DNA from: a virus
Taxonomy: Duplodnaviria; Heunggongvirae; Uroviricota; Caudoviricetes
IMG/VR virus record: IMGVR_UViG_2778261576_000004
Span: 1-41,372 of that record
Reading direction: 5' to 3' (one strand)
Length of the DNA stretch: 41,372 nucleotides
Shown here: in pieces, positions 13,323 to 33,125 of the stretch
Position numbering within the stretch: position 1 is the stretch's first letter
Layout: each line of letters begins with the position of its first letter
Position numbers and translations under genes: made by a program
Notes under the pieces: generated by a model
Told to the model about the DNA's origin: nothing
Seen by the model: only the letters and a program-made list of their open reading frames with translations
Databases searched by the model: none

Positions 13323-13653
13323 ATCAGCAGCAGAGCGCAAAGCCGCTCAGAGAGCCAGACAAGCTGCATCTGGCGTGCGTAAGCTGGAAATTGTGCTTGA
13401 TGCTCAGGAAATTGAAATGCTGGAGCGTAACTGTGCCACGCGTCGCCCCGGGCGTGCGCCTTACGAATTTGGTGAGTATATAGCGTTACTGATCCGCCAG
13501 GATGATGCACGCGTGCGCGGGCGTATAAAATCGATCAGCAGAAAACGTTGCGGTAAGTGCGGCGAGATAGTTCCTGTGAATTCATGCCCGTGTAATGGTG
13601 ACTCGCAATGCTGGGTGACCAAAGGCTGGCATGAAACGAAATTAATAGTGTGA
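13315..13653 (+). CDS. Hypothetical protein with basic N-terminus and C-terminal Cys cluster (candidate regulator)
   Basis: N-terminus MAKSAAERKAAQRARQAASG...; C-terminal CGKCGEIVPVNSCPCNGDSQC zinc-ribbon-like cluster; last gene before the terminase-proximal terminator. Confidence 0.4.
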   Translation: MAKSAAERKAAQRARQAASGVRKLEIVLDAQEIEMLERNCATRRPGRAPYEFGEYIALLIRQDDARVRGRIKSISRKRCGKCGEIVPVNSCPCNGDSQCWVTKGWHETKLIV

Positions 13654-13670
13654 CATGTCACGAAGGTGTT

Positions 13671-13883
13671 ATGCCAAAAATACGCTACGACCTTGAAGAT
13701 ATGAGAGATAACTCAGCAAATTTTCCGAAAGAGGTTAAATTTCTCATGCATAAGTATGGTTGCGCCAGGAGGGATATAGTTATCGACAGTCAGCACCCTT
13801 GCGGCGAGGATGTAATTTTCATTCGCGGTAAATGGGAAGGGTATCTTGACGAGAGTTTTTACGATGAATTTGATGGACTTTGA
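13671..13883 (+). CDS. Hypothetical small protein
   Basis: ATG at 13671 with GAAGGTG SD; the GTGACATGTCAC palindrome overlaps the upstream stop. Confidence 0.3.
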   Translation: MPKIRYDLEDMRDNSANFPKEVKFLMHKYGCARRDIVIDSQHPCGEDVIFIRGKWEGYLDESFYDEFDGL

Positions 13884-13888
13884 ATACT

Positions 13889-13914
13889 GCCGCCAACTAT
13901 GGCGGCTTTATTTT
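13889..13914 (+). terminator. Rho-independent terminator upstream of the terminase genes
   Basis: GCCGCC-AACTAT-GGCGGC hairpin followed by TTTATTTTG. Confidence 0.6.
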
Positions 13915-13925
13915 GCATGGTACTA

Positions 13926-13940
13926 TTACCACAACGGTAA
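13926..13940. promoter_or_regulatory. TTACC-N5-GGTAA palindrome upstream of the terminase small subunit gene
   Basis: Perfect TTACCACAACGGTAA between the terminator and ATG 13958 (17 nt upstream); a partial repeat (CTATTACCAC) follows. Confidence 0.45.
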
Positions 13941-13957
13941 CTATTACCACGGTGGTT

Positions 13958-14554
13958 ATGATGCCTGCTGAACCTAAAACCTATAAACGCAAATCAACGC
14001 AATTTAAGCCGCTCACAGCAATGCAGGAGGCTTATTGCCAGTCATACATCAAAACGCCTGAAAACCAGACTCAGGCAGCGATTAACGCAGGATTCTCCCC
14101 AAATACAGCGGCAGTTAAAGCCAGTGTCATGATGCGCGATGAACGCATTCAAAAACGGATTGCCGAGTTGATGGAGGAGCGCAACAAACGAATGCGCGTC
14201 AGTGCTGATTACGTTCTCATGCGCCTGGTGGAGATCGACCAGATGGACGTGATCGACATCCTCAACGACGATGGGAGCCTTAAGCCAATCCGCGAGTGGC
14301 CGAAAATCTGGCGCACTACGCTTAGTGGCTTTGATCTGTCATCGACCATCATGAACATGAACGAGGATTCGATAGAGACAATCCTCAAAAAAATTAAATG
14401 GCCTGACAAGGTGAAGAACCTCGAACTGATTGGTAAGCACGTCGACGTCAACGCGTTCAAAGAACGCCTGGATGTTAATGTGAATGTGACAATTGCTGAT
14501 CGCATAGCGGCAGCCAGGAAGCGACTCAAAGAACGTCAGGATGGTAATCAGTGA
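13958..14554 (+). CDS. Terminase small subunit
   Basis: Directly upstream of and coupled to the large subunit; HTH-like N-terminus (TAMQEAYCQSYIK...AAINAGFSPNTAAVKAS). ORF-track start 13880 rejected because it spans the terminator. Confidence 0.65.
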   Translation: MMPAEPKTYKRKSTQFKPLTAMQEAYCQSYIKTPENQTQAAINAGFSPNTAAVKASVMMRDERIQKRIAELMEERNKRMRVSADYVLMRLVEIDQMDVIDILNDDGSLKPIREWPKIWRTTLSGFDLSSTIMNMNEDSIETILKKIKWPDKVKNLELIGKHVDVNAFKERLDVNVNVTIADRIAAARKRLKERQDGNQ

Positions 14555-16026
14555 CAGATACAGCGTTATCTCCTGAAGAGCAGTTGATCGAGGATATTGC
14601 AGGGTTCACTCACGATCCGCTTGGCTATGCCCTCTATGCGTTCCCGTGGGGGGAAGAGGGTACTGAACTGGCACATGCCACCGGTCCACGTCAGTGGCAG
14701 GCCGATGCGTTCCGAGAGATACGTGATCACCTGCAGAATCCAGAGACGCGATATCAGCCGCTTATGCTGGCACGTGCTTCTGGTCACGGTATTGGTAAAT
14801 CCGCATTCATCTCAATGCTGATCAACTGGGGCATGTCCACTTGCGAGGATTGTAAGGTCGTGGTGACCGCCAACACCGACAACCAGCTACGAACGAAGAC
14901 CTGGCCGGAAATTATCAAGTGGTCGAACCTTGCTATCACGAAAGACTGGTTTACCTGTACCGCTACCGCGATGTACAGCAATGATCCTGGGCACGACAAG
15001 CGGTGGCGAGCTGACGCAATCCCCTGGTCTGAGCACAACACTGAGGCATTCGCCGGACTACACAACGAGCGCAAACGCATCATCGTGGTATTCGATGAAG
15101 CGTCGAACATTGCGGATCTGGTGTGGGAAGTTGCCGAAGGTGCGCTAACTGACGAAGACACTGAGATTATCTGGGTGGCGTTCGGAAACCCGACGCGTAA
15201 TACCGGGCGATTCCGTGAATGTTTCCGCAAATATAAACACCGCTGGAAAACTGCGCAGATTGACAGCCGGACGGTGGAAGGCACTAACAAACAGCAGTTG
15301 CAGAAATGGGTTGATGACTACGGGGAAGACAGCGACTTCGTTAAAATCCGTGTGCGCGGCATATTCCCTGATGCATCTGAATTGCAGTTTATCCCTACCG
15401 GTCTTACTGATGAGGCAATGAAACGGGTGGTAACCGCTGCGCAGGTGGCGCATGCTCCGGTGATAATCGGTGTTGACCCGGCATATTCAGGCGTTGATGA
15501 CGCGGTGATATACCTGCGGCAGGGGCTACACAGTAAGGTGCTGTGGACTGGCAACAAGACTACCGACGATCTGATTATGGCGAAGCGTATCGCTGACTTT
15601 GAAGACCTGTATCAGGCTGACGCAGTGTTCATCGACTTTGGTTACGGTACCGGTCTGAAGTCAATCGGTGATGGTTGGGGGCGCACATGGCAACTTGTTC
15701 CGTTCGGTGGCGCGTCTACTGACCAGCAGATGCTCAACAAGCGTGGGGAGATGTTCAACTCATGCAAGACATGGCTGAGGCTGGGCGGGATGCTGGATGA
15801 CCAGGAAACAGCGGACGATCTGTCGGCGGCAGAGTACAAAGTTCGAGTGGACGGTAAAATCGTTATCGAACCGAAGGAAGATATCAAGGAGCGGCTTGGG
15901 CGTTCGCCTGGTAAAGGCGATGCGCTACTGCTGACGTTTGCGTTCCCTGTGTCGAAGCGTCTGCGAATTCCCGGGCAGCAGAACCAGCAAGGCAAGGCCA
16001 TCACAGATTACGATCCCTATGCTTAA
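14551..16026 (+). CDS. Terminase large subunit
   Basis: 491 aa; Walker A-like ARASGHGIGKS, Walker B-like IIVVFDEAS and a C-terminal nuclease-type region; GTG start overlapping the small-subunit stop. Confidence 0.9.
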   Translation: MTDTALSPEEQLIEDIAGFTHDPLGYALYAFPWGEEGTELAHATGPRQWQADAFREIRDHLQNPETRYQPLMLARASGHGIGKSAFISMLINWGMSTCEDCKVVVTANTDNQLRTKTWPEIIKWSNLAITKDWFTCTATAMYSNDPGHDKRWRADAIPWSEHNTEAFAGLHNERKRIIVVFDEASNIADLVWEVAEGALTDEDTEIIWVAFGNPTRNTGRFRECFRKYKHRWKTAQIDSRTVEGTNKQQLQKWVDDYGEDSDFVKIRVRGIFPDASELQFIPTGLTDEAMKRVVTAAQVAHAPVIIGVDPAYSGVDDAVIYLRQGLHSKVLWTGNKTTDDLIMAKRIADFEDLYQADAVFIDFGYGTGLKSIGDGWGRTWQLVPFGGASTDQQMLNKRGEMFNSCKTWLRLGGMLDDQETADDLSAAEYKVRVDGKIVIEPKEDIKERLGRSPGKGDALLLTFAFPVSKRLRIPGQQNQQGKAITDYDPYA

Positions 16027-16116
16027 TCCGCTGGTGGGGATAATGTCGTTGATATCCTCTGATGAGGATAAAACAAAGCCAGCTCATCGGCTGGCTGTTT
16101 GTGACATGTCACGGTG

Positions 16117-16488
16117 TTATTGCTCGCTTAGCTTCTGCTTCAGCAAGTAACCTTCGAGCATCCAGATTTTGTTTACAGCATTCTGCCGGGCAATCTTCCG
16201 ACCAATTTCTGCATCAAAGTTTTCCGGGCTTGCACAGGCGCTCTCTCCGGTGACGGTGAAGCCGTTGCGCAGCACCAGGACGCAGAACGTCAGCAGAGAA
16301 AGTGATTCGTGCGGCTGGTAGTTTACCTCTCCGCCAGTATGTTTCGCTTTTATGGCTTTGCCAAAGGCACCATCTTCTGCTGTGAAATATGCCTCCTGAG
16401 CAATAATGCCTTCGATATGGTCTGGCGTAACGCGCGGTGCCGTTTTGCCTTTCTCAACGATTTCTTTTTCGATTTGCTTGTCGTTCAT
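16117..16488 (-). CDS. Hypothetical protein (possibly Gp49/Sf6 gp66-like family)
   Basis: 123-aa minus-strand ORF inserted between terminase and portal genes on the opposite strand; family name from memory only. Confidence 0.4.
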   Translation of the reverse strand: MNDKQIEKEIVEKGKTAPRVTPDHIEGIIAQEAYFTAEDGAFGKAIKAKHTGGEVNYQPHESLSLLTFCVLVLRNGFTVTGESACASPENFDAEIGRKIARQNAVNKIWMLEGYLLKQKLSEQ

Positions 16489-16499
16489 AATCTCACCTT

Positions 16500-16523
16500 A
16501 AAAAAATGCCCGGCGAACCGGGC
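16500..16523 (-). terminator. Rho-independent terminator downstream of the tRNA (minus strand)
   Basis: GCCCGG-CGAA-CCGGGC hairpin with an A-run on the plus-strand side (U-tract on the minus strand), ending just before the SD of the 16488 gene. Confidence 0.55.
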
Positions 16524-16686
16524 GAACTGGAAGCAATGAGTTATGCCTTCCGTGGCTGTACGGGTTTACAGCATGAAGTCATCGCAATGGCGTCCTGCTG
16601 TAAAAAGGGCGGTGATAGTCCTTCAAGGGAAACCATCACCGCCAAGCCCCTGGAACTTCTGGCATCACGGTCCTTAGGCGTGATTC

Positions 16687-16763
16687 TGGCGTGGCATGCA
16701 GGATTCGAACCTGCGACCAACCGCTTAGAAGGCGGTTGCTCTGTCCGACTGAGCTAATGCCAC
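16687..16763 (-). tRNA. tRNA-Arg (anticodon UCU)
   Basis: Minus strand folds by hand into a cloverleaf: acceptor GTGGCAT/ATGCCAC, D-arm GCTC/GAGC, anticodon stem ACCGC/GCGGT with loop CTTCTAA, T-arm GCAGG-TTCGAAT-CCTGC, encoded CCA. Confidence 0.85.
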
Positions 16764-17085
16764 AACGCTGAGAGCACTTAGCCTGTTAAGGCGCCACACT
16801 TTGTCGCGGCTCCATAAATGCTCTCATCGTTGTACCCTCGTCTCTTCCGAGGCGTCACACCGAATCGCCGGGATGGTGAATCCCCGTGCGCGGAATAAAA
16901 CCGCTCGACTTGCACATTCCGGCTACCTGGTTCGTTTGCCCGAGCAAGGGAGGGTGCCCCTTAAACGTATCCAGACCGCTATCGGCGCATGTGCCATACG
17001 CCGTACTGCTCAAAATAAAAGCTCACTCCACCTGTTTAATTTAACGACAAGCCAGTCAGGTTAGTAACCAGAATGAGCTCTTTAG

Positions 17086-17165
17086 TTACCTGAAAGGTAA
17101 TAATTCACGCGTTAAATGTCAACCTTCTACGATAAATAAATCATATGTGGTTAAATTGGTAATAA
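17086..17165. promoter_or_regulatory. Palindrome (17086-17100) plus TATGTGGTT box (17144-17152) and GGTAATA (17159-17165) upstream of the portal operon
   Basis: Same arrangement as upstream of the tailspike gene (35438-35502). Confidence 0.45.
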
Positions 17166-17190
17166 TTTAATTGCGTACGGAGTCATTGAT

Positions 17191-17397
17191 ATGTGCATGG
17201 GTAGCTCACCATCAGTGCCTGCAACACCAGAAGTTCAGGCAGCACCACAGGAGCAGGATGCCGCCGTTGTTGATGCCCGCGACGAAGAAACACGTCGCCG
17301 TCGCGCTGCTGCTGGTCGTAGTTCTACGCTGCTTACCGGTTCTCAGGGCGACACATCAACCGCTAATACCAGCGGTAAAACGCTACTTGGTCAGTAA
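17191..17397 (+). CDS. Hypothetical small protein (68 aa)
   Basis: First ORF after the putative late promoter; its translation initiation region ACGGAGTCATTGATATG is nearly identical to that of the portal gene. Confidence 0.35.
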   Translation: MCMGSSPSVPATPEVQAAPQEQDAAVVDARDEETRRRRAAAGRSSTLLTGSQGDTSTANTSGKTLLGQ

Positions 17398-17411
17398 CCG
17401 GAGTCATTGAA

Positions 17412-19082
17412 ATGGCGGAAACAACTAAAGAGCGATTGAACAAACAGTTCGCACAACTTGAAAGCGAGCGTCAGTCGTTCGAGCCGCACTGGCGCGAGTT
17501 GAGTGATTACATCAACCCGCGTGGTTCCCGCTTTCTGACTTCTGAGGTCAACCGTAACGATCGACGCAATACACGCATTATTGATTCGACCGGGACTATG
17601 GCGGCGCGCACTCTCGCCAGCGGCATGATGTCAGGCATCACAAGCCCCGCGCGTCCGTGGTTTCGCCTGGCTACGCCAGATCCTGAAATGATGGATTATG
17701 GCCCTGTTAAGTTGTGGCTTGAGGCGGTGCAGAACCGCATGAACGATATGTTCAATAAGTCGAATCTCTATCAGTCGCTGCCGCAGTTATACGGAAGCCT
17801 CGGCACATACAGCACTGGTGCAATGGCAGTGCTGGAGGATGACGAGGACATCATTCGCACAATGCCATTCCCGATAGGCAGTTACTACCTGGCTAACTCA
17901 CCTCGTGGCAGTGTGGACACTTGTTTTCGCAAGTTCTCTATGACTGTTCGTCAGCTTGTTCAGGAGTTCGGGCTAAATAACGTCAGCGAATCCGTAAAAA
18001 GCATGTGGGAAAGCGGCACCTACGAGAAGTGGATTGAAGTGATGCATTCGGTTTACCCGAACATTGACCGCGATACATCGAAGCTGGATAGCAAGAACAA
18101 GCCATTCAAATCAGTTTATTACGAGGTTGGTGGCGATAACGACAAGTTGTTGCGTGAGTCCGGATTCGATGAGTTTCCAATTATGGCTCCGCGCTGGGAA
18201 GTTAACGGCGAAGATGTTTATGGATCATCATGCCCGGGTATGCTGGCGCTTGGACCTGTTAAGGCATTGCAGCTTCTCCAGAAGCGCAAGTCGCAGTTGA
18301 TTGATAAAGCCACCAATCCGCCGATGGTTGCTCCGACTTCCCTCAAGAATCAGCGCGCCTCCCTTCTTCCTGGCGACATCACGTATATCGATCAGATTAC
18401 TGGTCAGGATGGTTTCAGGCCTGCTTATCTGGTTAACCCCAGTACAGCAGATCTGGTGGCAGACATTCAGGACACTCGCCAAATCATTAACAGCGCCTAC
18501 TTTGTCGATCTGTTCATGATGTTGCAGAACATCAATACCCGCTCGATGCCTGTTGAAGCGGTGATCGAAATGAAAGAAGAAAAACTTCTGATGTTGGGGC
18601 CGGTTCTGGAGCGTCTGAACGACGAATGTCTTAATCCTCTCATTGACCGCGCTTTCTCGATGATGGTGCGTAAAAACATGCTGCCGCCACCGCCTGACGC
18701 GATGGAAGGTATGCCCCTGAAGGTCGAATACATTTCCGTCATGGCTCAGGCGCAGAAGTCTATCGGCCTGTCCAGTCTGGCATCCACGGTCAACTTCATT
18801 GGTCAACTTGCGCAAGCGAAACCAGAAGCTCTCGACAAACTCAACGTTGATCAGGCGATCGATGCATTCGCTGATATGTCCGGAGTGTCTCCAACCGTCA
18901 TTGTTCCGCAGGAACAGGTTGAGCAGGCTCGCCAGCAACGGGCACAGCAGCAACAGCAGCAACAAATGATGGCGATGGGGATGGCGGCGGCACAGGGTGC
19001 CAAGACGCTAAGCGAAGCTAAAACTTCGGATCCGAGTGTTTTGTCAGCTATGGCGAATGCAGTTAGTGGTCAGGGTGGGTAA
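17412..19082 (+). CDS. Portal (head-to-tail connector) protein, T7 gp8-like
   Basis: 556 aa; Gln/Ala/Met-rich C-terminus (QQQQQQQMMAMGMAAAQGA) and overall layout resemble the T7-type connector as recalled. Confidence 0.8.
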   Translation: MAETTKERLNKQFAQLESERQSFEPHWRELSDYINPRGSRFLTSEVNRNDRRNTRIIDSTGTMAARTLASGMMSGITSPARPWFRLATPDPEMMDYGPVKLWLEAVQNRMNDMFNKSNLYQSLPQLYGSLGTYSTGAMAVLEDDEDIIRTMPFPIGSYYLANSPRGSVDTCFRKFSMTVRQLVQEFGLNNVSESVKSMWESGTYEKWIEVMHSVYPNIDRDTSKLDSKNKPFKSVYYEVGGDNDKLLRESGFDEFPIMAPRWEVNGEDVYGSSCPGMLALGPVKALQLLQKRKSQLIDKATNPPMVAPTSLKNQRASLLPGDITYIDQITGQDGFRPAYLVNPSTADLVADIQDTRQIINSAYFVDLFMMLQNINTRSMPVEAVIEMKEEKLLMLGPVLERLNDECLNPLIDRAFSMMVRKNMLPPPPDAMEGMPLKVEYISVMAQAQKSIGLSSLASTVNFIGQLAQAKPEALDKLNVDQAIDAFADMSGVSPTVIVPQEQVEQARQQRAQQQQQQQMMAMGMAAAQGAKTLSEAKTSDPSVLSAMANAVSGQGG

Positions 19083-19087
19083 TCACA

Positions 19088-19384
19088 ATGACAGATTACG
19101 AAGACGATCAACTGAAAGAAGAAAACGCCAGTAAGCAACGTGACATGGCACAGCGTGAAATTGATGACATTCGCTTTGTCATGAGCAGTGAACAGGGGCG
19201 TCGCGTTGTCTGGTCTGTGCTGGAGAAAGGCCGGGTGTTTTCCGCTATCTCACCGATGGATGCTATGGCAATGGCATTTAATGAGGGGCAACGCAATCTG
19301 GCGCTGGAACTGTTTCAGCGCGTTATGGCGCATTGCCCTGAACAGTATTTGAAGATGGCCAAAGAGGCCAGTGAACAGGAGTGA
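19088..19384 (+). CDS. Hypothetical protein
   Basis: 98-aa ORF between the portal and scaffold genes. Confidence 0.4.
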   Translation: MTDYEDDQLKEENASKQRDMAQREIDDIRFVMSSEQGRRVVWSVLEKGRVFSAISPMDAMAMAFNEGQRNLALELFQRVMAHCPEQYLKMAKEASEQE

Positions 19385-19386
19385 TC

Positions 19387-20082
19387 ATGAATTTATTTGA
19401 GCGTTTGCTGTATCGCCGTCTTTGCAATGAGCAACCAGTCGATGGTGGAGCAGCTCCGGCTGCGTCAGAACCGTCAGCGCCTGCAGGTGATAACCCTGCT
19501 CCAGTTGGTGATCCATCACAACCGGAAGGTGATAAGCCACAACCTGTTGCTGATGGCGATAAACCTGCTGATGACAAAAAGCCTGAAAACGATAAGCAGG
19601 ATGAAAAAAAGGACGGCGATAAACCAGAGGGTGCGCCTGAGAAGTACGAGTTTCAGGCTGCCGAAGGCGTAGAGCTGGATACAGAAGCGTTGAAGGAATT
19701 CGAGCCGGTGGCGCGAGAACTAAACCTGACCAACGAGCAAGCGCAAAAGCTGGTTGATGCTTATCCGAAGATTCTGGCAGGTGTTCAGCAGCGCCAGGCA
19801 GAAGCCTGGCAGAAAACAACCGAGCAGTGGGCTGCGGATGTAAAAGCTGACAAAGAAATCGGTGGCGACAAGTTGATTTCTAACCTTAGCGCCGCACAGC
19901 GTGCGCTTGACCAGTTCGGGACACCTGAACTCAAAGAATATCTGAACACCACCGGGCTGGGTAATCACCCTGATCTGGTCAAAACGTTCGTGAAAATTGG
20001 AAAGGCGATGTCTGAAGATGGCATGGTCACCGGTGGTAATGAAGGCCAGCGTAGTGCGGCCGAAGTGCTCTATGGCAAATAA
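19387..20082 (+). CDS. Putative scaffolding protein
   Basis: Position between portal and capsid genes; acidic, Pro/Lys-rich low-complexity N-terminal half and helical C-terminal half; ATG 19387 with AGGAG SD. Confidence 0.55.
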   Translation: MNLFERLLYRRLCNEQPVDGGAAPAASEPSAPAGDNPAPVGDPSQPEGDKPQPVADGDKPADDKKPENDKQDEKKDGDKPEGAPEKYEFQAAEGVELDTEALKEFEPVARELNLTNEQAQKLVDAYPKILAGVQQRQAEAWQKTTEQWAADVKADKEIGGDKLISNLSAAQRALDQFGTPELKEYLNTTGLGNHPDLVKTFVKIGKAMSEDGMVTGGNEGQRSAAEVLYGK

Positions 20083-20090
20083 GAGAGGAA

Positions 20091-21083
20091 ATGACAATGG
20101 CTGTTAAAGGCTTAACTGCGCTAACGCTGGCTGACTGGGGTAAGCGCGTCGATCCAAACGGGAAAGTCGATAAGATTATCGAGCTTCTCGGTCAAACTAA
20201 CCCGATCCTTCAGGATATGCCTTTTGTCGAAGGGAACCTTCCTACCGGACACCGAACCACCATTCGTTCTGGTTTACCTTCAGCTACCTGGCGTTTGCTG
20301 AACTATGGCGTACAGCCAAGCAAATCAACCACAGTGCAGGTAACCGATTCCGTTGGCATGCTGGAAACCTATGCTGAAGTCGATAAGTCACTGGCTGATC
20401 TGAACGGCAATACCGCCGAATTCCGCCTGTCTGAAGACCGCGCATTTATTGAAGCGATGAATCAGCAGATGGCGCAGACGCTGTTTTATGGTGATTCCAG
20501 CGTTAACCCTCAGCAGTTTATGGGACTGTCCTCCCGCTATTCCAGCCTGTCTGCAGGTAATGCTCAGAACATCATTGATGCTGGTGGCACGGGCACAGAT
20601 AACACCTCAATCTGGTTAGTGGTGTGGGGCGAAAACACCGTGCATGGCATCTTCCCGAAAGGGCAGAAGGCTGGCATTCAGATGGAAGATAAAGGCCAGG
20701 TGACACTGGAAGATGCTAATGGCGGCAAGTACGAAGGCTACCGTACCCATTACAAATGGGACAACGGACTTGCTCTGCGTGACTGGCGTTATGTTGTTCG
20801 CATTGCAAACATCGATGTCAGCAATCTTTCAGAACCTTCCTCTGCCGCAAATATTGCGAAGTTGATGGTTAAAGCACTGCATCGCATTCCAAACCGTGGC
20901 ATGGGTCGCCCGGTGTTCTACATGAACCGCACTGTAGGCCAGGCTCTTGATCTGCAGTCTCTGGAGAAAACATCTCTGGCGATTAGCGTAAAAGAGACTG
21001 AAGGCGAGTGGTGGACGTCATTCCGTGGTGTACCAATCCGTGAAACTGATGCGCTTCTGGAAACAGAAGCCCGCGTGGTGTAA
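20091..21083 (+). CDS. Major capsid protein
   Basis: 330-aa ORF after the scaffold gene and followed by a hairpin; start may be ATG 20097 (better SD spacing). Confidence 0.7.
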   Translation: MTMAVKGLTALTLADWGKRVDPNGKVDKIIELLGQTNPILQDMPFVEGNLPTGHRTTIRSGLPSATWRLLNYGVQPSKSTTVQVTDSVGMLETYAEVDKSLADLNGNTAEFRLSEDRAFIEAMNQQMAQTLFYGDSSVNPQQFMGLSSRYSSLSAGNAQNIIDAGGTGTDNTSIWLVVWGENTVHGIFPKGQKAGIQMEDKGQVTLEDANGGKYEGYRTHYKWDNGLALRDWRYVVRIANIDVSNLSEPSSAANIAKLMVKALHRIPNRGMGRPVFYMNRTVGQALDLQSLEKTSLAISVKETEGEWWTSFRGVPIRETDALLETEARVV

Positions 21084-21134
21084 CGCCTGTTATTAACCTG
21101 TGGGTCGTAACAGACCCACTAATGGAGAAAGAAG

Positions 21135-21572
21135 ATGATCACCGACAAACTGTTGATGTTCTCCGAAGCACAGGCGGTAACTGATACCGCGGCTTCTACT
21201 GACGTAATCGATCTCGGTCCAATTGATGGAAACCGTCGCGATATCGGTGTGGGTTACCCGCTTGAGTTTTGGGGGCTGGTTAACGAAGCCGCCACGGCAA
21301 GTGGTGAGGCAACTGTAAACATCCAGTTGCAGACGAGTGAGAATAACAGCTCATGGACCACTATTTATGATAGTGGCGCACTGGCAAAGGCCACCCTGAC
21401 AGCAGGTAAGCGAGTTGTTTCTGCAAAGGTGCCAGCCGGTGTTCAGCGATATCTGCGTGTTAACTACTCCGTCGCAACTGGCCCACTAACGGCTGGCAAA
21501 TTCACTGCGGGTATCAATCTTGATGTTGATGCCAATACGCCGTATCCGATCCGCTCAAAAGTAACTGGTTAA
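21135..21572 (+). CDS. Hypothetical virion protein (possible capsid-associated)
   Basis: 145-aa ORF directly after the capsid gene; no confident domain. Confidence 0.4.
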   Translation: MITDKLLMFSEAQAVTDTAASTDVIDLGPIDGNRRDIGVGYPLEFWGLVNEAATASGEATVNIQLQTSENNSSWTTIYDSGALAKATLTAGKRVVSAKVPAGVQRYLRVNYSVATGPLTAGKFTAGINLDVDANTPYPIRSKVTG

Positions 21573-25033: not shown

Positions 25034-25497
25034 TGATCGACGTTCAAATTATTCCCGCTACCGAAGAGCATCTTCAGATGATTTTGCCGGATGTTCGTCA
25101 GGCTGATATTGACGAACTGTATGCGGTATCGCTGATGACTACCGAAGATGCGCTGCGTGTTGGTCTGCGTACTGCGACTATGGCCTGGTCAGGATTTGCG
25201 AACGGAGAACTGGTAACCATGTTTGGCGTATCTCCGGCGTCAATGATCGGTGGCAATGGTACGCCCTGGCTGGTCGGAACCAGCCGTATCGAAAAATATC
25301 AGAAGACATTTCTTCGCCACTGCCGCCCTGTATTGCAGCAGATGCTGGCAGTTTATCCGCGCCTGGAAAACTATGTCGACGAGCGAAACCATGTTGCCAA
25401 AGCATGGCTGCACTGGCTTGGATTCAGGCTTGAAGAAGCCGCGCCTTATGGTGCTCTTGGTCTTAATTTCCACAGATTTCACATGGAGAGAAAATAA
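25033..25497 (+). CDS. Putative internal virion protein (gp13 position)
   Basis: 154-aa ORF coupled to the flanking genes; assignment by synteny only. Confidence 0.4.
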   Translation: MIDVQIIPATEEHLQMILPDVRQADIDELYAVSLMTTEDALRVGLRTATMAWSGFANGELVTMFGVSPASMIGGNGTPWLVGTSRIEKYQKTFLRHCRPVLQQMLAVYPRLENYVDERNHVAKAWLHWLGFRLEEAAPYGALGLNFHRFHMERK

Positions 25498-26072
25498 TGT
25501 GCGATCCGGTTATTGCTGGTGGCGCAATGCTCGCCATGAGTGGCATTCAGGCATACACCCAGTACCAACAGGGAAAGTATGCCTCGAAGGTTGCAGAAGC
25601 GAACGCAGATATAGCCACAGCTCAGGCAAATGATGCAATAAACAGGGGTAACGCTGAAGCTGAGCAACGGCGCAGAGAGACCCGACAGCGGCTTGGTACA
25701 CAGGCGGCGACAATGGGGGCTACCGGCGCTGATTTATCTACCGGTAACGCGCTGGATATATTTGGTGACACTGCTCAGTTTGGCGCTCTTGATTCGCTGA
25801 CGACGGTGAATAACGCGCAACGCGAGGCTTACGGTTATCAGGTTCAGGCTGCCAACTATAAAGCAGAAGCCAGTTCAGCCCGTAAACAGGGGAATGTGGG
25901 AGCAGCAACAACATTGCTCACTGCGCCTCTGAAGGCATACGGTGCGTACCAGATGTTTGGTGGGACGTGGAGTCCGTTCTCTAAAGGAAGTACATCTGGT
26001 GGTGGGACGCCAATGTTATCTAACTCAGGTTTTATGAATTCTGACTCCCGATTCAAAATAGGAGGTTACTGA
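25497..26072 (+). CDS. Putative internal virion protein B-like (gp14 position)
   Basis: 191 aa, Ala/Gly/Gln-rich; synteny and size. Confidence 0.45.
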   Translation: MCDPVIAGGAMLAMSGIQAYTQYQQGKYASKVAEANADIATAQANDAINRGNAEAEQRRRETRQRLGTQAATMGATGADLSTGNALDIFGDTAQFGALDSLTTVNNAQREAYGYQVQAANYKAEASSARKQGNVGAATTLLTAPLKAYGAYQMFGGTWSPFSKGSTSGGGTPMLSNSGFMNSDSRFKIGGY

Positions 26073-28819
26073 TGCCTGTTGTTCCTACTACATCCGGACG
26101 CCAGGTGCAAAGTCGTGGTGTGCAAACCGGTGGTTTTCAGACCTTCGATGTTCCTCAAGCAGGTCAGGTGCTGGCGAATGTCGCAGATCAGTATGCGGTG
26201 GCATATGGTGAAGCCAGGCAGAAAGCGAATGTTGCTATGGCCCAGGAGGCGTTACTGCAATTTAACCAATTTGCAGATGACCAGATTAACAACCCTGAAA
26301 ATGGGCTGATTTCTAAACAGGGTAAAAACGCTCTTGGTCAGAGTGACGCTGTTATGAAAAATATGCAGGAAAGGGCTCAGGCATTATTAGGCTCAATCCC
26401 TGAAAGTGAGGAAAGGAATAAATTATCCTTTCAACTCCAGCAGTCTATGCAGTCTTATTACAATCAGGCACGTCGATATGAAGTTGGGCAGTTTCAGCAA
26501 TTCCAAGATCAAACGTATTTGTCAGGAAATGCATTGGCTGTCACTCAGTCTGCGGGGCTATATAGCGATAACCAAGCATTTGTCGATTTAGCCAAGCAGC
26601 GATTTGAATCTATTGATCAATACGCTGATGCGCATGGGCTTCCTGATGAGTGGCGTGTTCAGCAGAAAACTCAGCTCAAGGAAGAAATGGGGCAGCAAGC
26701 ATGGATAGGAAATATCGCTCAAAAATACAACGAGTTTCTTCAGGTTAATGGAGAGCCAGGGGATCTTGGTGGTGTGAGTCGTGCAATATCACATGGTAAT
26801 TCATTGGATGCTCGTGGTTTACGTAATAATAACCCTGGTAATATTGAAGCGAGCAAATCTAACCCGTGGGAAGGTCAGATCGGTAGCGATGGACGTTTTG
26901 CAACGTTTGCTACCCCTGAGCATGGAATCCGCGCGTTGGGTAAAAATATGTTGTCTTACCAGCGTCAAGGCTATGACACCGTTAGCGAGATTGTTAATCG
27001 CTATGCTCCGGCTAGTGATGGTAATAATACTGATGCTTATATTAGGGCATTGTGTGGTGAGCTTGGTGTTGGGGAGAATGATCAGCTTGATATCTCTAAC
27101 CCAAAGACACTAGCTGCTTTATGTGCTGGGATTATTAAACACGAAAATGGCAGTATGCCTTATAGCACCGAACAGCTTGAAACTGGTATCTCGGCAGCCC
27201 TTGGTCTAACTAACCTTGATTCACCTAAGCGTTATACGGGCAATGCGGCATTTGATGCTATGAGCCCTCAAATGCAAATACAGGCATTGAGGCAGGCTAA
27301 TGAGCTGAGAAATCAGTACCGCCAGCAGTATGCGGACCAGCTTAGCACCGTAGTTAAAGATGCATATTCAGCCCTTGATGAAGGATTGAAACCTGAGAAG
27401 TTACCTTCTGAGGACGATTTTATCCGGGCCAATGGTCCGCGCATTGGCGCTATGAAGTGGAAGGATATGCAGGCGCAGATACAATATGGAGGTGTCATTG
27501 GTGCCGCTAAAGACCTCACTCCAGAAGGACGACAAGACATTCTTGAACGTTTACGTCCACAGGATCCAAACGCTCCTGGATTTGCTGCTAACCAGCAACG
27601 CTGGGAGAAAATGCAGGCCAAATTTAAAGAGATGGATAGGGAGTGGGAGATTCAGCAGGGAAGAAACAGGTTCGTGTCTTCAATGCAAAATAACTTCCCG
27701 CTGGACCCGAACGACAAAAACAATCAGGCAGCGGTAGACCGTTATTTCGCGCAGGATATCGCGCCTTCGTTTTCCATATCTGATCCGCAGAGCATCAATA
27801 CACTGGTCACCGTCACAACTAAAAGCGGCATGATACCAACTCAGGTTAAAACAATGCTTAACAGTGGAGCAACATCAAGAGATCCTGCGCTGGTTGTCCC
27901 GATGGCAAAATTCTACGGTCAGTTATTCGATAATAATCCGGCGGCAGCGGCAACACTTGATAAAAGTACGATGGCATTTTACGGCAAGGTTTACGATTAT
28001 TCCCGCGCTGGCGTGCCGGAGGATAAGGCTGTTGATATGGCTTACAGCCAGGTGTTCCAACAGGATGACCGAATGAAACAGATGCTTTCCACTGCCATGC
28101 GAGACAAAAAATATGTCGCGGCGAGGGCAACTGCTGCACAAAATAACGCCAGCAGTCTGACTTCCTTTGGTTCGTGGTCTCCGGATATTACCGATCCAGG
28201 AAAATCAAATGCGGCCTATCAGCGAGATTACCAGACAATTTACGATGCTAACTTTGTACAGACAGGTGGCGATGCAGAACAGGCTGAGAAAATGACCAAT
28301 GCCATGATCAGAACCACCTGGGGAGTTTCTACGGTTAATGGCAAAGCAGAGGTTATGAAGTATGCACCTGAGGCATTGTACGGAGTAAATAATGGTGCTG
28401 GTAACTGGATACAGGGGCAGTGGGAGCAGGAAAAACGCGAGCTTAAATCAAAATCCTTTGGCGGTCCTCGCAGTGATACGGACTTAATACTTGTTTCTGA
28501 TGGCCTTACGGCAAGGGATAGGAGTTATGCTGTTATGGTTTTACAGCCTGACGCAAACGGAGCGATAGAACCGAGAAATTATATTGGAGAAAATGGTCTC
28601 CCTGTTCGTTTCAAGCCGGATCAGCTGACATCTCCAATGTACAGGCAAACCATTCAGTTACAGCAACAGCGTGTTGATGAGGCTAGAGTGCGGAGAGAAG
28701 GCAATCCGCTGCCGCAGTTCAGCAATAAAGATGGATATACTCCTCCAGATCTGACCAAACCATTCGGTTATGGTTCAGCCAATTACCTTCCGAGCAATAT
28801 ATACGCAGGGGGCAAATAA
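26072..28819 (+). CDS. Putative internal virion (ejection) protein C-like
   Basis: 915-aa ORF in the gp15 position; contains a visibly AT-richer internal segment (about 26.3-27.3 kb). Confidence 0.5.
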   Translation: MPVVPTTSGRQVQSRGVQTGGFQTFDVPQAGQVLANVADQYAVAYGEARQKANVAMAQEALLQFNQFADDQINNPENGLISKQGKNALGQSDAVMKNMQERAQALLGSIPESEERNKLSFQLQQSMQSYYNQARRYEVGQFQQFQDQTYLSGNALAVTQSAGLYSDNQAFVDLAKQRFESIDQYADAHGLPDEWRVQQKTQLKEEMGQQAWIGNIAQKYNEFLQVNGEPGDLGGVSRAISHGNSLDARGLRNNNPGNIEASKSNPWEGQIGSDGRFATFATPEHGIRALGKNMLSYQRQGYDTVSEIVNRYAPASDGNNTDAYIRALCGELGVGENDQLDISNPKTLAALCAGIIKHENGSMPYSTEQLETGISAALGLTNLDSPKRYTGNAAFDAMSPQMQIQALRQANELRNQYRQQYADQLSTVVKDAYSALDEGLKPEKLPSEDDFIRANGPRIGAMKWKDMQAQIQYGGVIGAAKDLTPEGRQDILERLRPQDPNAPGFAANQQRWEKMQAKFKEMDREWEIQQGRNRFVSSMQNNFPLDPNDKNNQAAVDRYFAQDIAPSFSISDPQSINTLVTVTTKSGMIPTQVKTMLNSGATSRDPALVVPMAKFYGQLFDNNPAAAATLDKSTMAFYGKVYDYSRAGVPEDKAVDMAYSQVFQQDDRMKQMLSTAMRDKKYVAARATAAQNNASSLTSFGSWSPDITDPGKSNAAYQRDYQTIYDANFVQTGGDAEQAEKMTNAMIRTTWGVSTVNGKAEVMKYAPEALYGVNNGAGNWIQGQWEQEKRELKSKSFGGPRSDTDLILVSDGLTARDRSYAVMVLQPDANGAIEPRNYIGENGLPVRFKPDQLTSPMYRQTIQLQQQRVDEARVRREGNPLPQFSNKDGYTPPDLTKPFGYGSANYLPSNIYAGGK

Positions 28820-31800
28820 TGCCGATATATGAACAGGATCCTAAAGAGTTGCTTGGCGAGGATATTCAGCAAATAGCAGCACCTGATGACAGTAATTTCT
28901 ATATGGAAACACCTTCTTTGCTTTCTGCTGTGAACCCATTTACCAGTGATCAACGCGTTCAAAGGTCTAGACAAGCAGCATTTCGTATAGATAACACGCT
29001 GGGTAGCTTTATTGCCAGTGCTCCTTTCAGTCAGTTTGACAGGGTTGAAGGATATAACCCATTTGATAACGATGCAGCAGATATTAAAGGCTATGAAGAT
29101 TTTGCAGATTCGTTTATCAACTCCGGTTCGCCTGAAGAAACAATGGCAATTAAACATCGAATCGATCAGCAGAGAGCTGACATGGAATACAATTCAGGCT
29201 TGGGATTTGCTGGTACAGTCTCTTCTGTAGCAATGAGATTAGCAGATCCATTCAATGCGATTTCTATGTTTATTCCGTTCGGCGCTGTTGTTCGTGGCGG
29301 TCGTATTGCAGAAACAGCCGGGCGTTTTGCCCTGGCGAATGCTGCTGGCAGTGTTGCTTCAGAGGCCGCATTACAGGCCACTCAGGAAGCTCGCTCACCG
29401 ATGGAGAGCGTATCGAACGTTGTTGTTGATGCTCTCGTTGGTGGGATCCTTGGTGCTGGTGCACAGCTACTTGCTGGACCTGGCGCGCGCGAGGCAGTGG
29501 TTAACTCAGTAGGTAATCATTTGCGAGGTATGGATTCTCCTCAAAGCATTGGTGCAGCTCAGGTTTTCAATACCACACTCGATCAGGAACAGCTCGCTGG
29601 ACTTGGACTTGCTAACAAAACGTTGAGTGTCACTCCTGCTGGCCGCTTGGCGCAATCACCATCTCTTGTCTCCCGTCAGATTAACCAGCAGCTTGCCGAA
29701 AATAACTATTTCTTCGCCAAAAATGATGAGGGGTTGGCTACGTTTACGGCAGTCGAGACTAAGATTAAGCAATACGACGCCATGCTTTATAAGCAGATGG
29801 AAGCCACTCGTGATGCTTACCAGCAGTACAGCAAATCTGTTAGCGCCCGCGGCGTGAAGAGGATGAACTTTATTGATTTCAATGAAGCTGTTGGCATGGC
29901 TATGCGCCGTGGTGATCAGAGTGATATTCCTGAGGTTTCACAAGCAGCCGCCAGAATCCGCCCCATTTTCGAGACCACAAAAGCCCGTATGCAGGAACTG
30001 GGGATCCTTCCTGAGGATATCGATGTCGTGACGGCGAAAAGTTATCTTCCCCGCATTTATAAGTTCGATAAGATACTTTCCGACCGCACTGAATTCAGAG
30101 GGCGAATTGCCAACTGGATACAAGGGATTAGTGCCAAAGGTGCTGACAAAGCAGGTCAGCGAATTGAAAGGATAAATTCATTGCTAAAAACTGCAGAGGA
30201 ATCGGCACCGCGCGCTGATGCTCTCGCTAGTGAAATCGCTGAAGCGGAGAAATGGTCTGGTAAAAAAATTCTACTCATGGAAGAACTGGATAAACGAAAT
30301 AAGCTTATATCTCAGGAGACTGACACACAGGCGCGTCTTACAAGAATAGAAAAAGAGTTGGCCGAGACTTCATCAGAAAAACTTCAGGCAAGAATGATGA
30401 AAGAAAGCTCTGACCTTAAAACACGCCTTGATGATATAGCGCAGGCAAAGAGTGAGCTTCCTGTCTATCAGCGCCATATGGAGTTGTTGGATAATCCACG
30501 GAAATATCGTTCTGAGCTTCGCCGACTGCAAAAACGGGCAAATTCAACCACAAGGCTGAATGCAAGCCGCGAACGAGCACTGAAGCAGATGGAGCCTCTA
30601 TCCCGAGAGGAAGCAGAGGACGCTGCTGACGAGATCGTGAATAAAATAATAGGCGCACCTTCCGGGCTTGTACCAGCCGATATTATCCCAGAGAGACTCG
30701 TTGGTCGGGCTGGTTTCACTAAAAGCAGAACGCTGCTTATTCCTGATGAGCGTATAGAAGATTTTCTTGAATCAGATGTTAACTACATCATGGAAAGTTA
30801 TCTCCGGCAGGTGGCACCAGAAATTGAGCTGACTGCGCAGTTTGGCCGTAAAGATATGGGGGAGCAAATCCGTCAGGTTAGTGAGGAATATACCCGGCTA
30901 ATAAAAGAGGCTAAAACACCTAAACGACGTGCAGTTCTTGAGAAGCAACGGGAGGCTGATATTAGGGATATTACGGCTATGCGTGATCGACTGCTTGGTA
31001 CTTACGGTGCACCTCAAGATCCACGCAGTTTCTTTGTTCGTGCCGGGCGAGTTGCTAGGAATATTAACTTCCTCCGTTTGCTTGGTGGAATGACCGTCTC
31101 CGCTGCAACTGATCTGATGCGACCGATGATGCAGCATGGCCTGAGAAAATCTCTCGGACCAATGGTAAGCATGCTTAAAAATATGGACTCAGTGAAGATT
31201 GCAACCAGGGATTTGCGAGAAATGGCCGTTGGGCTTGATTATGTCCTGTCTACGCGTACAAAGGCTATAGCGGATCTTACTGACCCATATAGCCGGAGAA
31301 GCGCCGCTGAGCGAGGCCTGAACTGGATGACGCAGAAATTCGGTAACTGGACGCTGATGAATCAGTGGAACAGCGCACTTAAATCATGGTCTGGGATGAT
31401 AGTGCAGTCGAGGATACTTGACGCGGCTCGCCAAGTTTCTGCTGGTGGCACGCTCTCCAAAAGTGAAATGCGGAAGATGGCACAGGTCGGCATCAATGAA
31501 GATGTTCTGCGTCGAATCGGGGAGCAATTCGGGAAGCACGGAGAGGATATGGACGGGCTGTTAACCGGGCATAGTCATCTGTGGGATGACCGTTTCGCTA
31601 GAGAGATTTTCCAGTCTGCAGTGCTGAAAGATGTAGACTCAGTGATTGTAACGCCTGGCGTAGGTGATACACCGCTGTTTTTTAGTAAAGAAGGCTGGAA
31701 GATGATCACGCAGTTCAAAACGTTTATCTTCGCACAGCATAACAGGGTGCTAGTATCTGGTATCCAGCAGGGCGATGCTGCATTCTATCTTGGTGCGCTT

Positions 31801-32208
31801 GGCACGATTGCGCTTGGCTCAATGGTCTATATGATGAAACAGAAGTTAAGCGGTCGCGATATCGACTACAGCTGGAATAACCTTGTGAAAGAGGGGATCG
31901 ACCGGGGCGGAATGCTTGGCTGGCTCTCTGAGCCGCTGAATACCGTTGAGAACATAAGCGGCGGTAGGTTTGGTCTTGGCGCGATGTTTGGTGCGCCTCC
32001 GGTATCAAGGTTTCAGAGTCGTAATGCTATTGGTGCTTTACTTGGTCCTACCTTTGATCTTGGCGGTGATGCCGCGACGGTTGCGAATGGTGTACTTAAC
32101 GGAGAATTTGACAGCCAGCAAACCCACGCGGTCCGTAAAATGCTACCTTTTCAGAACCTGTGGGCGATATCACCGTTACTAAATAAAGTTGAAGAGCAGA
32201 TGAAATAG
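28819..32208 (+). CDS. Putative internal virion (ejection) protein D-like
   Basis: 1129-aa ORF in the gp16 position; long coiled-coil regions and hydrophobic Gly/Ala-rich stretches. Confidence 0.55.
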   Translation: MPIYEQDPKELLGEDIQQIAAPDDSNFYMETPSLLSAVNPFTSDQRVQRSRQAAFRIDNTLGSFIASAPFSQFDRVEGYNPFDNDAADIKGYEDFADSFINSGSPEETMAIKHRIDQQRADMEYNSGLGFAGTVSSVAMRLADPFNAISMFIPFGAVVRGGRIAETAGRFALANAAGSVASEAALQATQEARSPMESVSNVVVDALVGGILGAGAQLLAGPGAREAVVNSVGNHLRGMDSPQSIGAAQVFNTTLDQEQLAGLGLANKTLSVTPAGRLAQSPSLVSRQINQQLAENNYFFAKNDEGLATFTAVETKIKQYDAMLYKQMEATRDAYQQYSKSVSARGVKRMNFIDFNEAVGMAMRRGDQSDIPEVSQAAARIRPIFETTKARMQELGILPEDIDVVTAKSYLPRIYKFDKILSDRTEFRGRIANWIQGISAKGADKAGQRIERINSLLKTAEESAPRADALASEIAEAEKWSGKKILLMEELDKRNKLISQETDTQARLTRIEKELAETSSEKLQARMMKESSDLKTRLDDIAQAKSELPVYQRHMELLDNPRKYRSELRRLQKRANSTTRLNASRERALKQMEPLSREEAEDAADEIVNKIIGAPSGLVPADIIPERLVGRAGFTKSRTLLIPDERIEDFLESDVNYIMESYLRQVAPEIELTAQFGRKDMGEQIRQVSEEYTRLIKEAKTPKRRAVLEKQREADIRDITAMRDRLLGTYGAPQDPRSFFVRAGRVARNINFLRLLGGMTVSAATDLMRPMMQHGLRKSLGPMVSMLKNMDSVKIATRDLREMAVGLDYVLSTRTKAIADLTDPYSRRSAAERGLNWMTQKFGNWTLMNQWNSALKSWSGMIVQSRILDAARQVSAGGTLSKSEMRKMAQVGINEDVLRRIGEQFGKHGEDMDGLLTGHSHLWDDRFAREIFQSAVLKDVDSVIVTPGVGDTPLFFSKEGWKMITQFKTFIFAQHNRVLVSGIQQGDAAFYLGALGTIALGSMVYMMKQKLSGRDIDYSWNNLVKEGIDRGGMLGWLSEPLNTVENISGGRFGLGAMFGAPPVSRFQSRNAIGALLGPTFDLGGDAATVANGVLNGEFDSQQTHAVRKMLPFQNLWAISPLLNKVEEQMK

Positions 32209-32649
32209 CTATTCACAATTAGTGATGGCGTATGTATCAAATATATTGCCATCACTAAATACATACCTATACTCAATCACTCCGCCAAGGTGAATAAATG
32301 CTTTCATTTGCCTGTTGGAGCAAATGCTCGATTTTGAATAATTTCGCATTACACTCTTTAATTTATTTTCTAAGGTTACATCACCATTATAAACTTTTGA
32401 TAAATAGCTGTTGTTGTAATTAAGATGCGCTACAACTAAAAGTTTGTTTAGTATTGCATTTATTGAAACAATAGACATATTATCATTCAATTTTATGGGA
32501 AGTGACTTTCCTGCTTCTGATGCAATTTTGTTTGCATGTGCACACATATCCTCATTTATTAAATTCTTAAAACATATGTCGTTTGCAAACGAAAAAATTG
32601 GTAGGATAAACAAAACGGTAGCTGTAATAGCGTGCATCGGCTTAATCAT
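32209..32649 (-). CDS. Hypothetical secreted protein (AT-rich accessory gene)
   Basis: N-terminal signal-peptide-like segment (AITATVLFILPIFSFA); strongly AT-rich coding sequence; convergent with the upstream virion gene. Confidence 0.4.
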   Translation of the reverse strand: MIKPMHAITATVLFILPIFSFANDICFKNLINEDMCAHANKIASEAGKSLPIKLNDNMSIVSINAILNKLLVVAHLNYNNSYLSKVYNGDVTLENKLKSVMRNYSKSSICSNRQMKAFIHLGGVIEYRYVFSDGNIFDTYAITNCE

Positions 32650-32661
32650 TAGGTGACCTTT

Positions 32662-33111
32662 ATGTTCAAGAAGATGATCAACAGATTAATCGGTGGTAAG
32701 GAGGTTAGCAATAAAATTCAACCTCTTATCTTTAAGGATAACTTTTCAGCTTTTGAGTATGCGTGTAAGTATCTTGACACAAGCCTTTCAGCCAATAAAC
32801 CAATGCCAGCCATCATCATACCTGGTCCCAGTGGGGAACAGCCAGTTTTGCTGGATTCTGGAAGACAAAGGGCAATGCTGAAGGTGTGCTCAGCTGATGG
32901 TGGATTTTTTGTTATTGCCGATTCATCTTACAGCAAAGGACCAAAGCTGAGGATTGGTGATCTTGTTGCTTGGTTGCCTGTGAGTTATGCCGAAGAATTA
33001 ACGGATAAAATAGAAGATCCTCGCTCCGCTATGGTTGGCTTTATATTGGGAACCATTCATCCTGAACTAACATCTACTGGCTGGAAGGGTAAAGAAAGAT
33101 TTCGCAAGTAG
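32662..33111 (+). CDS. Hypothetical protein (AT-rich accessory gene)
   Basis: ATG 32662 with AGGTGA SD; divergent from the 32209-32649 gene with almost no spacer; followed by a terminator. Confidence 0.4.
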   Translation: MFKKMINRLIGGKEVSNKIQPLIFKDNFSAFEYACKYLDTSLSANKPMPAIIIPGPSGEQPVLLDSGRQRAMLKVCSADGGFFVIADSSYSKGPKLRIGDLVAWLPVSYAEELTDKIEDPRSAMVGFILGTIHPELTSTGWKGKERFRK

Positions 33112-33125
33112 CGTGACATGTCACA

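Follow-up and report, generated by a model that had tools for sequence, protein, structure and literature searches.

A conserved palindrome at operon ends of epsilon15-like prophages as the candidate operator of a phage-encoded ribbon-helix-helix protein

Classical ribbon-helix-helix (RHH) proteins such as Arc, Mnt, CopG, MetJ and omega, like the 'LexA regulated protein' family, are small dimeric beta-alpha-alpha binders that recognize a short palindromic or repeated site. The lac repressor LacI, bound to the operator O3 at the 3' end of lacI, reportedly acts as a roadblock, giving rise to non-stop lacI mRNA and transfer-messenger RNA tagging. In lambdoid phages, the literature on modular evolution describes conserved 'linker' or boundary sequences at mosaic junctions. 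The Escherichia coli matS site (consensus GTGACATTGTCAC) is read by MatP with a helix and an RHH strand in the major groove (PMC8669397). Here we describe a 12-bp palindrome, GTGACATGTCAC, that recurs in a 41,372-nucleotide stretch of viral DNA (IMG/VR record IMGVR_UViG_2778261576_000004; the whole stretch is called the window), together with the 112-amino-acid protein encoded next to its first copy. The window corresponds to an entire E. coli prophage of the epsilon15/phiV10-like podovirus type (genus Uetakevirus), with an integrase at its left end and the host genes yfgI/yfgH at its right end. On balance, we favour the view that the palindrome is the cognate operator of the 112-amino-acid protein and acts on transcription at the 3' boundaries of operons.

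An exact search found GTGACATGTCAC exactly three times in the window (Table 1). A preliminary description of this DNA had placed the three copies at the same positions, in the same gene and module junctions, and had argued that so many would not be expected by chance. All of this held, as the chance expectation is 0.01 copies per window and three copies were reached in none of 100 dinucleotide-preserving shuffles; chance was accordingly rejected as their source. The general form GTGAC-NN-GTCAC was absent from a 150-kb sample of E. coli K-12, the host comparison proposed in that description, against three sites in the 41-kb window, and it was also absent from phage lambda. Allowing up to two mismatches added only one window site, GTGACATGGCAC, which differs at one position and lies within a coding region; this variant is also the partner site in tandem arrays of Yersinia P2-like phages and may be a weak fourth site. 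A cyclic AMP receptor protein (CRP) site, TGTGA-N6-TCACA, was rejected on spacing, which the preliminary description had already read directly from the sequence.

Each of the three internal plus-strand unit ends, those of the early-right, terminase and head-tail operons, bears the motif. Copy 1 holds the stop codon of the gene for the 112-amino-acid protein and is followed after 9 nucleotides by the ATG of a small open reading frame (ORF); a GTG 'start' at 13650 is an artefact of the ORF caller. Copy 2 lies between convergent genes, with the terL stop (16026) on one side and the minus-strand gene 16117-16488 on the other, and stands 4 nucleotides upstream, on the minus strand, of a terminator hairpin. 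At all three copies the space downstream is too short for a promoter, and classical promoter control is therefore unlikely. At copies 2 and 3 the order of elements is constant, namely stop codon, motif, 0-4 nucleotides, GC-rich hairpin and T-run, and the spacing between motif and hairpin is unchanged between phages although the hairpin sequences differ. More broadly, a terminator lies within 45 nucleotides of 24 of 77 motif sites, compared with 2.8% of random positions. The distance from copy 1 to its terminator is 22-41 nucleotides in relatives and 228 nucleotides in the window, because the small ORF lies between them.

These placements are kept across the genus. Epsilon15 (Salmonella), phiV10, Tyrion (Enterobacter) and SPN1S each carry the exact 12-mer at all three syntenic places; BUCT711 (Klebsiella), TL-2011b and an E. 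coli EC21 prophage carry it at two of them. The flanks differ between these genomes, and overall nucleotide identity falls to about 75-80%. The motif thus recurs at the junctions of related phages, where the preliminary description had allowed that it might be missing. Eighty close relatives yielded 127 exact copies in 1.31 Mb, a count that covers the syntenic places within reach of the fetched flanks; all were in three sequence contexts, two of them syntenic places and the third a variant setting where the same gene ends. The Klebsiella phage BUCT711 lacks copy 2 and carries an exact copy in an internal-virion-protein gene and a GTGACGTGTCAC variant in another structural gene (positions 26462 and 23066 of our locus L007; L numbers are our own labels).

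Beyond the genus, tblastn detected homologues of the protein in unrelated phages (myo-, sipho- and P2-like phages and Vibrio phages) whose genomes carry GTGAC-NN-GTCAC. The Pectobacterium myovirus ZF40, whose protein is 67% identical, has three copies of TGTGACATGTCACA, one of them 3 nucleotides past the stop of the homologue. The linear-plasmid prophage N15 (35% identical) has GTGACTGGTCAC three times, once over the gene 46 stop; a Yersinia P2-like phage carries a tandem pair of sites; and an 8.4-kb slice of Vibrio phage K303 (31% identity) holds two, one of which is 31 nucleotides ahead of terS. A scan of one genome per species produced a set of 38 loci from about 35 species, in which 710 kb of DNA contained 58 GTGAC-NN-GTCAC sites against about 0.7 expected. 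The family diversity comes from a genome collection, and a viral-contig search with alignment returned close E. coli relatives only. The site starts one nucleotide before the TGA of the homologue in 18 of the 38 loci, so that the stop codon is embedded, and it lies within 20 nucleotides of the stop in 22; in two metagenomic members with 30-36% identity the stop is likewise embedded in the site.

A scan of spacer lengths in the same DNA gave 58 sites at 2 bp and no more than one at each of 0, 1 and 3-8 bp. All 84 phage sites have the 2-bp spacer and none has a 3-bp spacer, which rules out matS as the identity of the site. The matS sites of the K-12 Ter region served as a positive control for this comparison: a 50-kb Ter sample (1,500,000-1,549,999) contained four GTGAC-N3-GTCAC sites, at 110, 5516, 14955 and 36808 of the sample, and two 50-kb K-12 samples outside the Ter region contained none. 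Within the phage sites the half-sites are invariant, and the central dinucleotide differs by clade (AT, GC, TG, CT/AG or AC). The full site is a 14-bp palindrome, Y-GTGAC-NN-GTCAC-R, whose left Y and right R vary independently and are often non-complementary. Some clades also have tandem sites and lone half-sites at a spacing of 32-36 bp; clustering of half-sites around sites was limited to some clades (0.46 versus 0.31 per 200 nucleotides overall). The independent flanks and the half-site arrays fit half-site recognition on duplex DNA, and the features of the site taken together favour recognition by a symmetric dimer.

Extra copies inside coding regions were seen in ZF40-like lambdoid prophages (ZF40 itself, L008, at 5125 and 7622; L097, L100, L103-L105, L116 and L117). 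One such copy falls near codon 30 of the gene for a protein of unknown function (PHROG 2479) and is always read there as Asp-Met-Ser; another lies about 10 nucleotides before the stop of a CII-like activator gene.

The product of ORF 13315-13653 was assigned to PHROG 536, 'transcriptional regulator', and searches of the 112-amino-acid sequence against Pfam, NCBIfam (as a single sequence) and PDB sequences gave no match. Its family is small: clustering at 50% identity gives 207 clusters, and nearly all members are stand-alone proteins of 100-135 amino acids. They come from temperate phages of Enterobacterales, Vibrio and Aeromonas. An AlphaFold model built from a 74-sequence alignment had a pLDDT (predicted local distance difference test) score of 92.9; a 21-sequence alignment gave a poor model (pLDDT 64). 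The better model shows a basic, arginine-rich N-terminal helix (residues 5-19), an extended segment (20-29), helices at 30-42 and 52-74, a cysteine-rich loop and a helix at 100-108, and confidently predicts an RHH fold. NCBIfam model NF008671, 'LexA regulated protein', which we take to be E. coli YbfE, was matched by 23 of the 74 family members, and weak family matches to RHH_5 and RepB-RCR_reg were obtained. Foldseek returned TTHA0139 as its sole match, and MatP is among the structural neighbours of the AlphaFold model. A PADLOC scan matched neither the protein nor its neighbours to a defence system, and a known defence-system component was thereby rejected.

The C-terminal half of the protein (about residues 49-110) weakly matches DksA/TraR zinc fingers. 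Searching PDB sequences with hmmsearch gave YbiI (E 0.012) and TraR (E 0.018), and hhalign assigned probabilities of 70% to TraR, 60% to YbiI and 0.3% to MatP. Below the curated NCBIfam cut-offs, four family members match NF008243 (best 3e-4), three match TraR and two match TIGR02419; there was no match to Pfam zf-dskA_traR. Four cysteines are invariant (79, 82, 91 and 99; C-x2-C-x8-C-x7-C), and Thr at 102 aligns with the last TraR cysteine, so the family departs from the canonical C-x2-C ... C-x2-C zinc-ligand pattern of DksA/TraR. Because of this non-canonical spacing, the proposed relation of the C-terminal four-cysteine module to DksA/TraR zinc fingers is suggestive only.

From the co-inheritance of gene and site, it is highly probable that the 112-amino-acid protein and the palindrome form a protein-site pair. 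In the mechanism that we propose, a dimer of the protein would bind each palindrome, with one GTGAC half-site per subunit, and the bound protein would meet elongating RNA polymerase at 3' boundaries and halt or release it. At copy 1, such a block would restrict the passage of polymerase from the early-right operon into the terminase genes. It would also place the stall ahead of the embedded stop codon, so that the protein would be autoregulated via truncated non-stop transcripts. At copies 2 and 3, bound protein would seal convergent junctions, insulating the late operons from adjoining accessory genes. The DksA/TraR-like module, if real, could supply the contact with polymerase. We offer the roadblock itself tentatively, as one possible way for the operator to work. 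More speculatively, the gp49/gp46 family could be a sequence-specific, DNA-anchored relative of DksA/TraR that sets a bidirectional polymerase stop sign at operon ends and at its own stop codon, with a recognition helix and strand that may share ancestry with MatP. Such shared ancestry, if true, would explain the matS-like half-sites.

Several observations weigh against an operator that acts at operon ends and should temper its interpretation. Co-occurrence is what pairs the protein with the site. A roadblock makes no use of the adjacent hairpins and leaves the strict motif-hairpin spacing unexplained, and a negative gate ahead of the terminase genes is not obviously useful to a phage. TL-2011b and the EC21 prophage each lack one copy, so none of the sites is essential by itself; several sites of ZF40-like and N15-like phages are within coding regions rather than at operon ends. 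The DksA/TraR link is marginal, as the cysteine spacing differs and Foldseek gave no DksA/TraR match. In addition, the residues before the TraR match in hhalign are basic (R43-R44-P45-G46-R47), at positions where TraR has functionally important acidic residues.

The same protein and sites could act with the opposite sign, the protein loading onto polymerase before the hairpin and suppressing termination like lambda Q, so that early transcription runs on into the terminase genes and late operons read through their terminators. At copies 2 and 3, as in an unrelated Serratia/Symbiopectobacterium prophage, the motif stands 0-4 nucleotides upstream of a hairpin. A polymerase paused on the T-run would have it about 30-35 bp behind, an arrangement similar to that of the Q binding element. 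As the last early-right gene, the gene for the protein lies directly ahead of terS, and a DksA/TraR-like module would give the protein a handle on polymerase. However, the distance from copy 1 to its terminator varies in the way described above, and the orientation of copy 2 suits the minus-strand accessory gene, where read-through would yield antisense terL RNA. ZF40 and N15 already have Q-like antiterminators, and each late operon has its own ATTACC-N5-GGTAAT region and therefore does not need read-through. We consider antitermination unlikely.

An element that acts as RNA seems to us more doubtful still. Here the transcribed GUGACAUGUCAC mini-hairpin would be a protein-binding or processing signal for termination, mRNA stability or downstream translation. 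A palindrome yields identical RNA from either strand, and the motif borders on terminator hairpins, with two neighbouring hairpins in the centroid folds; a Shine-Dalgarno sequence and ATG directly follow the motif in four independent settings, namely the window, N15, L083-type relatives and L133, and the arginine-rich helix of the protein could suit RNA. Yet the hairpin, with 4 bp and a tetraloop at -1.2 kcal/mol, is no better than shuffles and is absent from the minimum-free-energy fold of copy 1. Its stem shows no covariation and stays invariant even where the associated proteins share only 30% identity, the Y and R on either side lack complementarity, and lone half-sites and 32-36 bp arrays occur. 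At the stop of the gene itself, an asymmetric centre can face either way (CT in L102 and L110, AG in L094 and L132), and the predicted fold of the protein is that of a duplex-DNA binder. The weakness of the same hairpin, and the lack of a T-run, also led us to reject the motif itself as an intrinsic terminator.

Even less credence can be given to the idea that host MatP binds the sites as mimics of matS, or that the phage protein is a MatP-like organiser, and that they serve to bridge or condense DNA or to set MukBEF boundaries rather than to control transcription. The half-sites are identical to those of matS, three dispersed sites per genome are reminiscent of bridging, and the bacterial groups with MatP presumably match the hosts of the family. 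Against this, the 84 phage sites never have the matS spacer, and a change of 1 bp rotates the half-sites by about 36 degrees. Co-inheritance of the motif with a phage gene argues for a phage-encoded binder, and the hhalign comparison of the family with MatP was not significant.

The preliminary description had further suggested that foreign material was inserted at the boundaries marked by the motif, and had proposed alignment of related prophages. Relative to seven reference genomes, window homology ends 1-2 nucleotides after copy 1, ends 5 nucleotides before copy 2 in TL-2011b and begins 3-10 nucleotides before copy 3, so that it breaks within 10 nucleotides of all three copies; among the 80 relatives, alternative cargo genes replace one another directly after copies 1 and 2. 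Breakpoints and cargo switches thus do lie at the motif, but the motif is neither an insertion scar nor a target, and no evidence pointed to it as a substrate of the PD-(D/E)XK nucleases. At copy 1 the suggestion of inserted material failed: the PHROG 1541 ORF is ancestral, and phiV10-type genomes retain a remnant of it, an 8-codon mini-ORF, MHDEFDGF* (L001 12829-12870, at the start of the phiV10 record). As they keep the last 7 codons of the ORF, these genomes carry a deletion, which is in-frame and directly after the motif.

That the palindrome serves a nuclease (homing or PD-(D/E)XK) or a site-specific recombinase as a recombination or cleavage target for module insertion is hardly credible: the breakpoints, the cargo genes that start beside copies 1 and 2, and a junction inside the motif in L001 (homology starts at 33123) would fit, but the motif is fixed at the same three places genus-wide whether or not the cargo differs, stands on one side only of variable segments with no second flanking copy, accompanies at copy 1 an ancestral ORF deleted elsewhere, lies within conserved coding regions at several sites, and has as its partner in N15, ZF40, P2-like and Vibrio phages the RHH gene, with no nuclease or recombinase common to the motif-carrying phages. 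The junctions are best read as accessory-gene slots that lie against a conserved functional element, and the copies coincide with mosaic breakpoints because conserved elements border the slots in which accessory genes are exchanged. An operator at operon ends would then explain the fixed positions of mosaic breakpoints in this phage group.

The motif copies and the features around them are listed in Table 1. A second over-represented palindrome, ATTACC-N5-GGTAAT, has 15 window sites with up to two mismatches, against 1.1 expected. These sites precede each plus-strand operon, early and late, and are annotated 'repressor' in the epsilon15 GenBank record, a pattern that suggests that every operon, the late ones included, is directly under the prophage repressor. 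Since the repressor sites are a separate palindrome, the prophage repressor operator was rejected as the identity of the 12-mer. Operators of the form ATTACC-N5-GGTAA at 13925 and 13943 follow the terminator at 13889-13906 and precede terS. The longest-ORF start of terS (TTG 13880) would put that hairpin and two operator-like palindromes inside the gene; the true start is probably the ATG near 13957, as annotated in TL-2011b and epsilon15, and the phiV10 and PGAP starts look too far upstream.

Table 1. Palindrome copies and associated features, in window coordinates.
Feature	Position	Strand	Remarks
ATTACC-N5-GGTAAT sites, 17 bp each	5025, 5087, 5799, 6184, 8130, 8192, 13925, 13943, 17085, 34042, 35057, 35437		
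Candidate binding-protein gene, 112 amino acids (epsilon15 gp49 / phiV10 p55 / N15 gp46 family, PHROG 536)	13315..13653	+	
Motif copy 1, tGTGACATGTCACg	13650..13661	no strand	Contains TGA 13651-13653 of the predicted RHH-zinc-finger gene; then ribosome-binding site and ATG 13671
Small ORF, PHROG 1541, 70 amino acids	13671..13883	+	Between copy 1 and its terminator; deleted in phiV10-type relatives
Intrinsic terminator downstream of copy 1	13889..13906	+	
Intrinsic terminator hairpin with T-run	16077..16096	-	4-nucleotide gap to copy 2 constant genus-wide, hairpin sequence changing
Motif copy 2, tGTGACATGTCACg	16101..16112	no strand	4 nucleotides past the stop of minus-strand gene 16117-16488
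Accessory gene Phage_gp49_66 (PF13876)	16117..16488	-	Stop beside copy 2; alternative cargo genes in the slot in relatives
One-mismatch copy, GTGACATGGCAC	19140..19151	no strand	Inside Bbp19-family gene; conserved in E. coli relatives
Last plus-strand ORF ahead of copy 3, PHROG 9944	32653..33111	+	Different gene in the slot in each reference phage
Motif copy 3, cGTGACATGTCACa	33113..33124	no strand	1 nucleotide past the stop of ORF 32653-33111; abuts plus-strand hairpin
Intrinsic terminator hairpin AGGCCGCTTTCGCGGCCT with T-run, closing the head-tail operon	33125..33142	+	0-3 nucleotides past copy 3 in all relatives

A scan of the window at Rfam gathering thresholds returned three RNAs and nothing at the motif, and a known RNA family was rejected as its identity. 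A tRNA-Arg (anticodon TCT; 16687-16763, minus strand) is part of the variable region on the right-hand side of copy 2 and has an equivalent in the EC21 relative. A C4 antisense RNA (34836-34920, minus strand, 61 bits) and the Hfq-binding small RNA IsrK (34945-35021, minus strand, 68 bits) are just upstream of a minus-strand BRO-N/antirepressor-like gene (34130-34786), inside the accessory island. This region is a P1 immI-like, antisense-controlled antirepressor module.

Our literature search found no description of the motif (GTGACATGTCAC, GTGACNNGTCAC) or of a function for the protein, the epsilon15 genome paper being outside that search, and nothing relevant on epsilon15 gp49, matS-like prophage sites or terminator palindromes of phiV10 and epsilon15; the very detailed GenBank annotation of epsilon15 does not mark the motif. 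Palindromic sites recognized by RHH proteins are in themselves familiar. New here are a candidate operator embedded in a stop codon, sites placed at terminators, half-sites like those of matS and a possible TraR-like module. The pairing provides a probable cis element, and hence a testable function, for a conserved 'hypothetical protein' of phages that include the models epsilon15, phiV10 and N15, and an operator within the regulator's own stop codon would be an unusual, strongly conserved architecture. Should its target be elongating polymerase, the protein would form a compact, sequence-specific transcription boundary, with a bearing on how phages insulate accessory genes from late operons and possible use as a synthetic-biology part. 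Were the DNA-anchored stop sign real, it would amount to a programmable terminator or insulator of a type not described in bacteria. The near-identity to matS also raises the question of cross-talk with host chromosome organisation.

Compared with known systems, the phage site is most like matS, as the GTGAC/GTCAC half-sites are identical and the phage site equals matS minus one central base. Both systems have few dispersed sites per replicon and an RHH binder, established for MatP and modelled for the phage protein. They differ in that matS is a 13-bp GTGAC-RNY-GTCAC site with a 3-bp spacer, whereas the phage sites have 2 bp and lie beside stop codons and terminators in phage genomes. The four-helix bundle and coiled coil of MatP have no counterpart in the phage protein, which has a Cys4 module instead. 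LacI and O3 share with the phage gene the position of a regulator's operator at the extreme 3' end of its own gene, so that bound protein would stop polymerase before the stop codon in both cases. In the phage gene, however, the stop codon is inside the putative operator, this arrangement is kept across the protein family, and further copies close other operons. Classical RHH operators lie in promoters, in contrast to phage sites at gene ends, inside operons or beside terminators, and classical RHH proteins lack the predicted additional C-terminal zinc module.

DksA and TraR, which are RNA polymerase secondary-channel factors, resemble the phage protein in a long helix, a C-x2-C-G-x2-(I/L)-P segment, a further cysteine and a C-terminal helix. 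The phage family differs in having Thr at the second cysteine of the second CxxC and an extra cysteine in the loop, and the scores are marginal. TraR needs acidic N-terminal residues for function, and no counterpart was seen in the phage protein. We know of no DksA/TraR protein that is sequence-specific for DNA. The lambda Q-QBE (Q binding element) and N-nut systems are alike in that a phage factor works at a defined site near the end of an early gene, upstream of a terminator. Q acts at a promoter-proximal pause and N on RNA, however, whereas the phage sites are palindromic duplex sites at operon ends, and neither protein is homologous to the 112-amino-acid protein. Finally, like the linkers of lambdoid phages, the palindrome is a short conserved sequence exactly at homology breakpoints between modules, but it differs from them in having a plausible dedicated binding protein and in being conserved far beyond one phage group.

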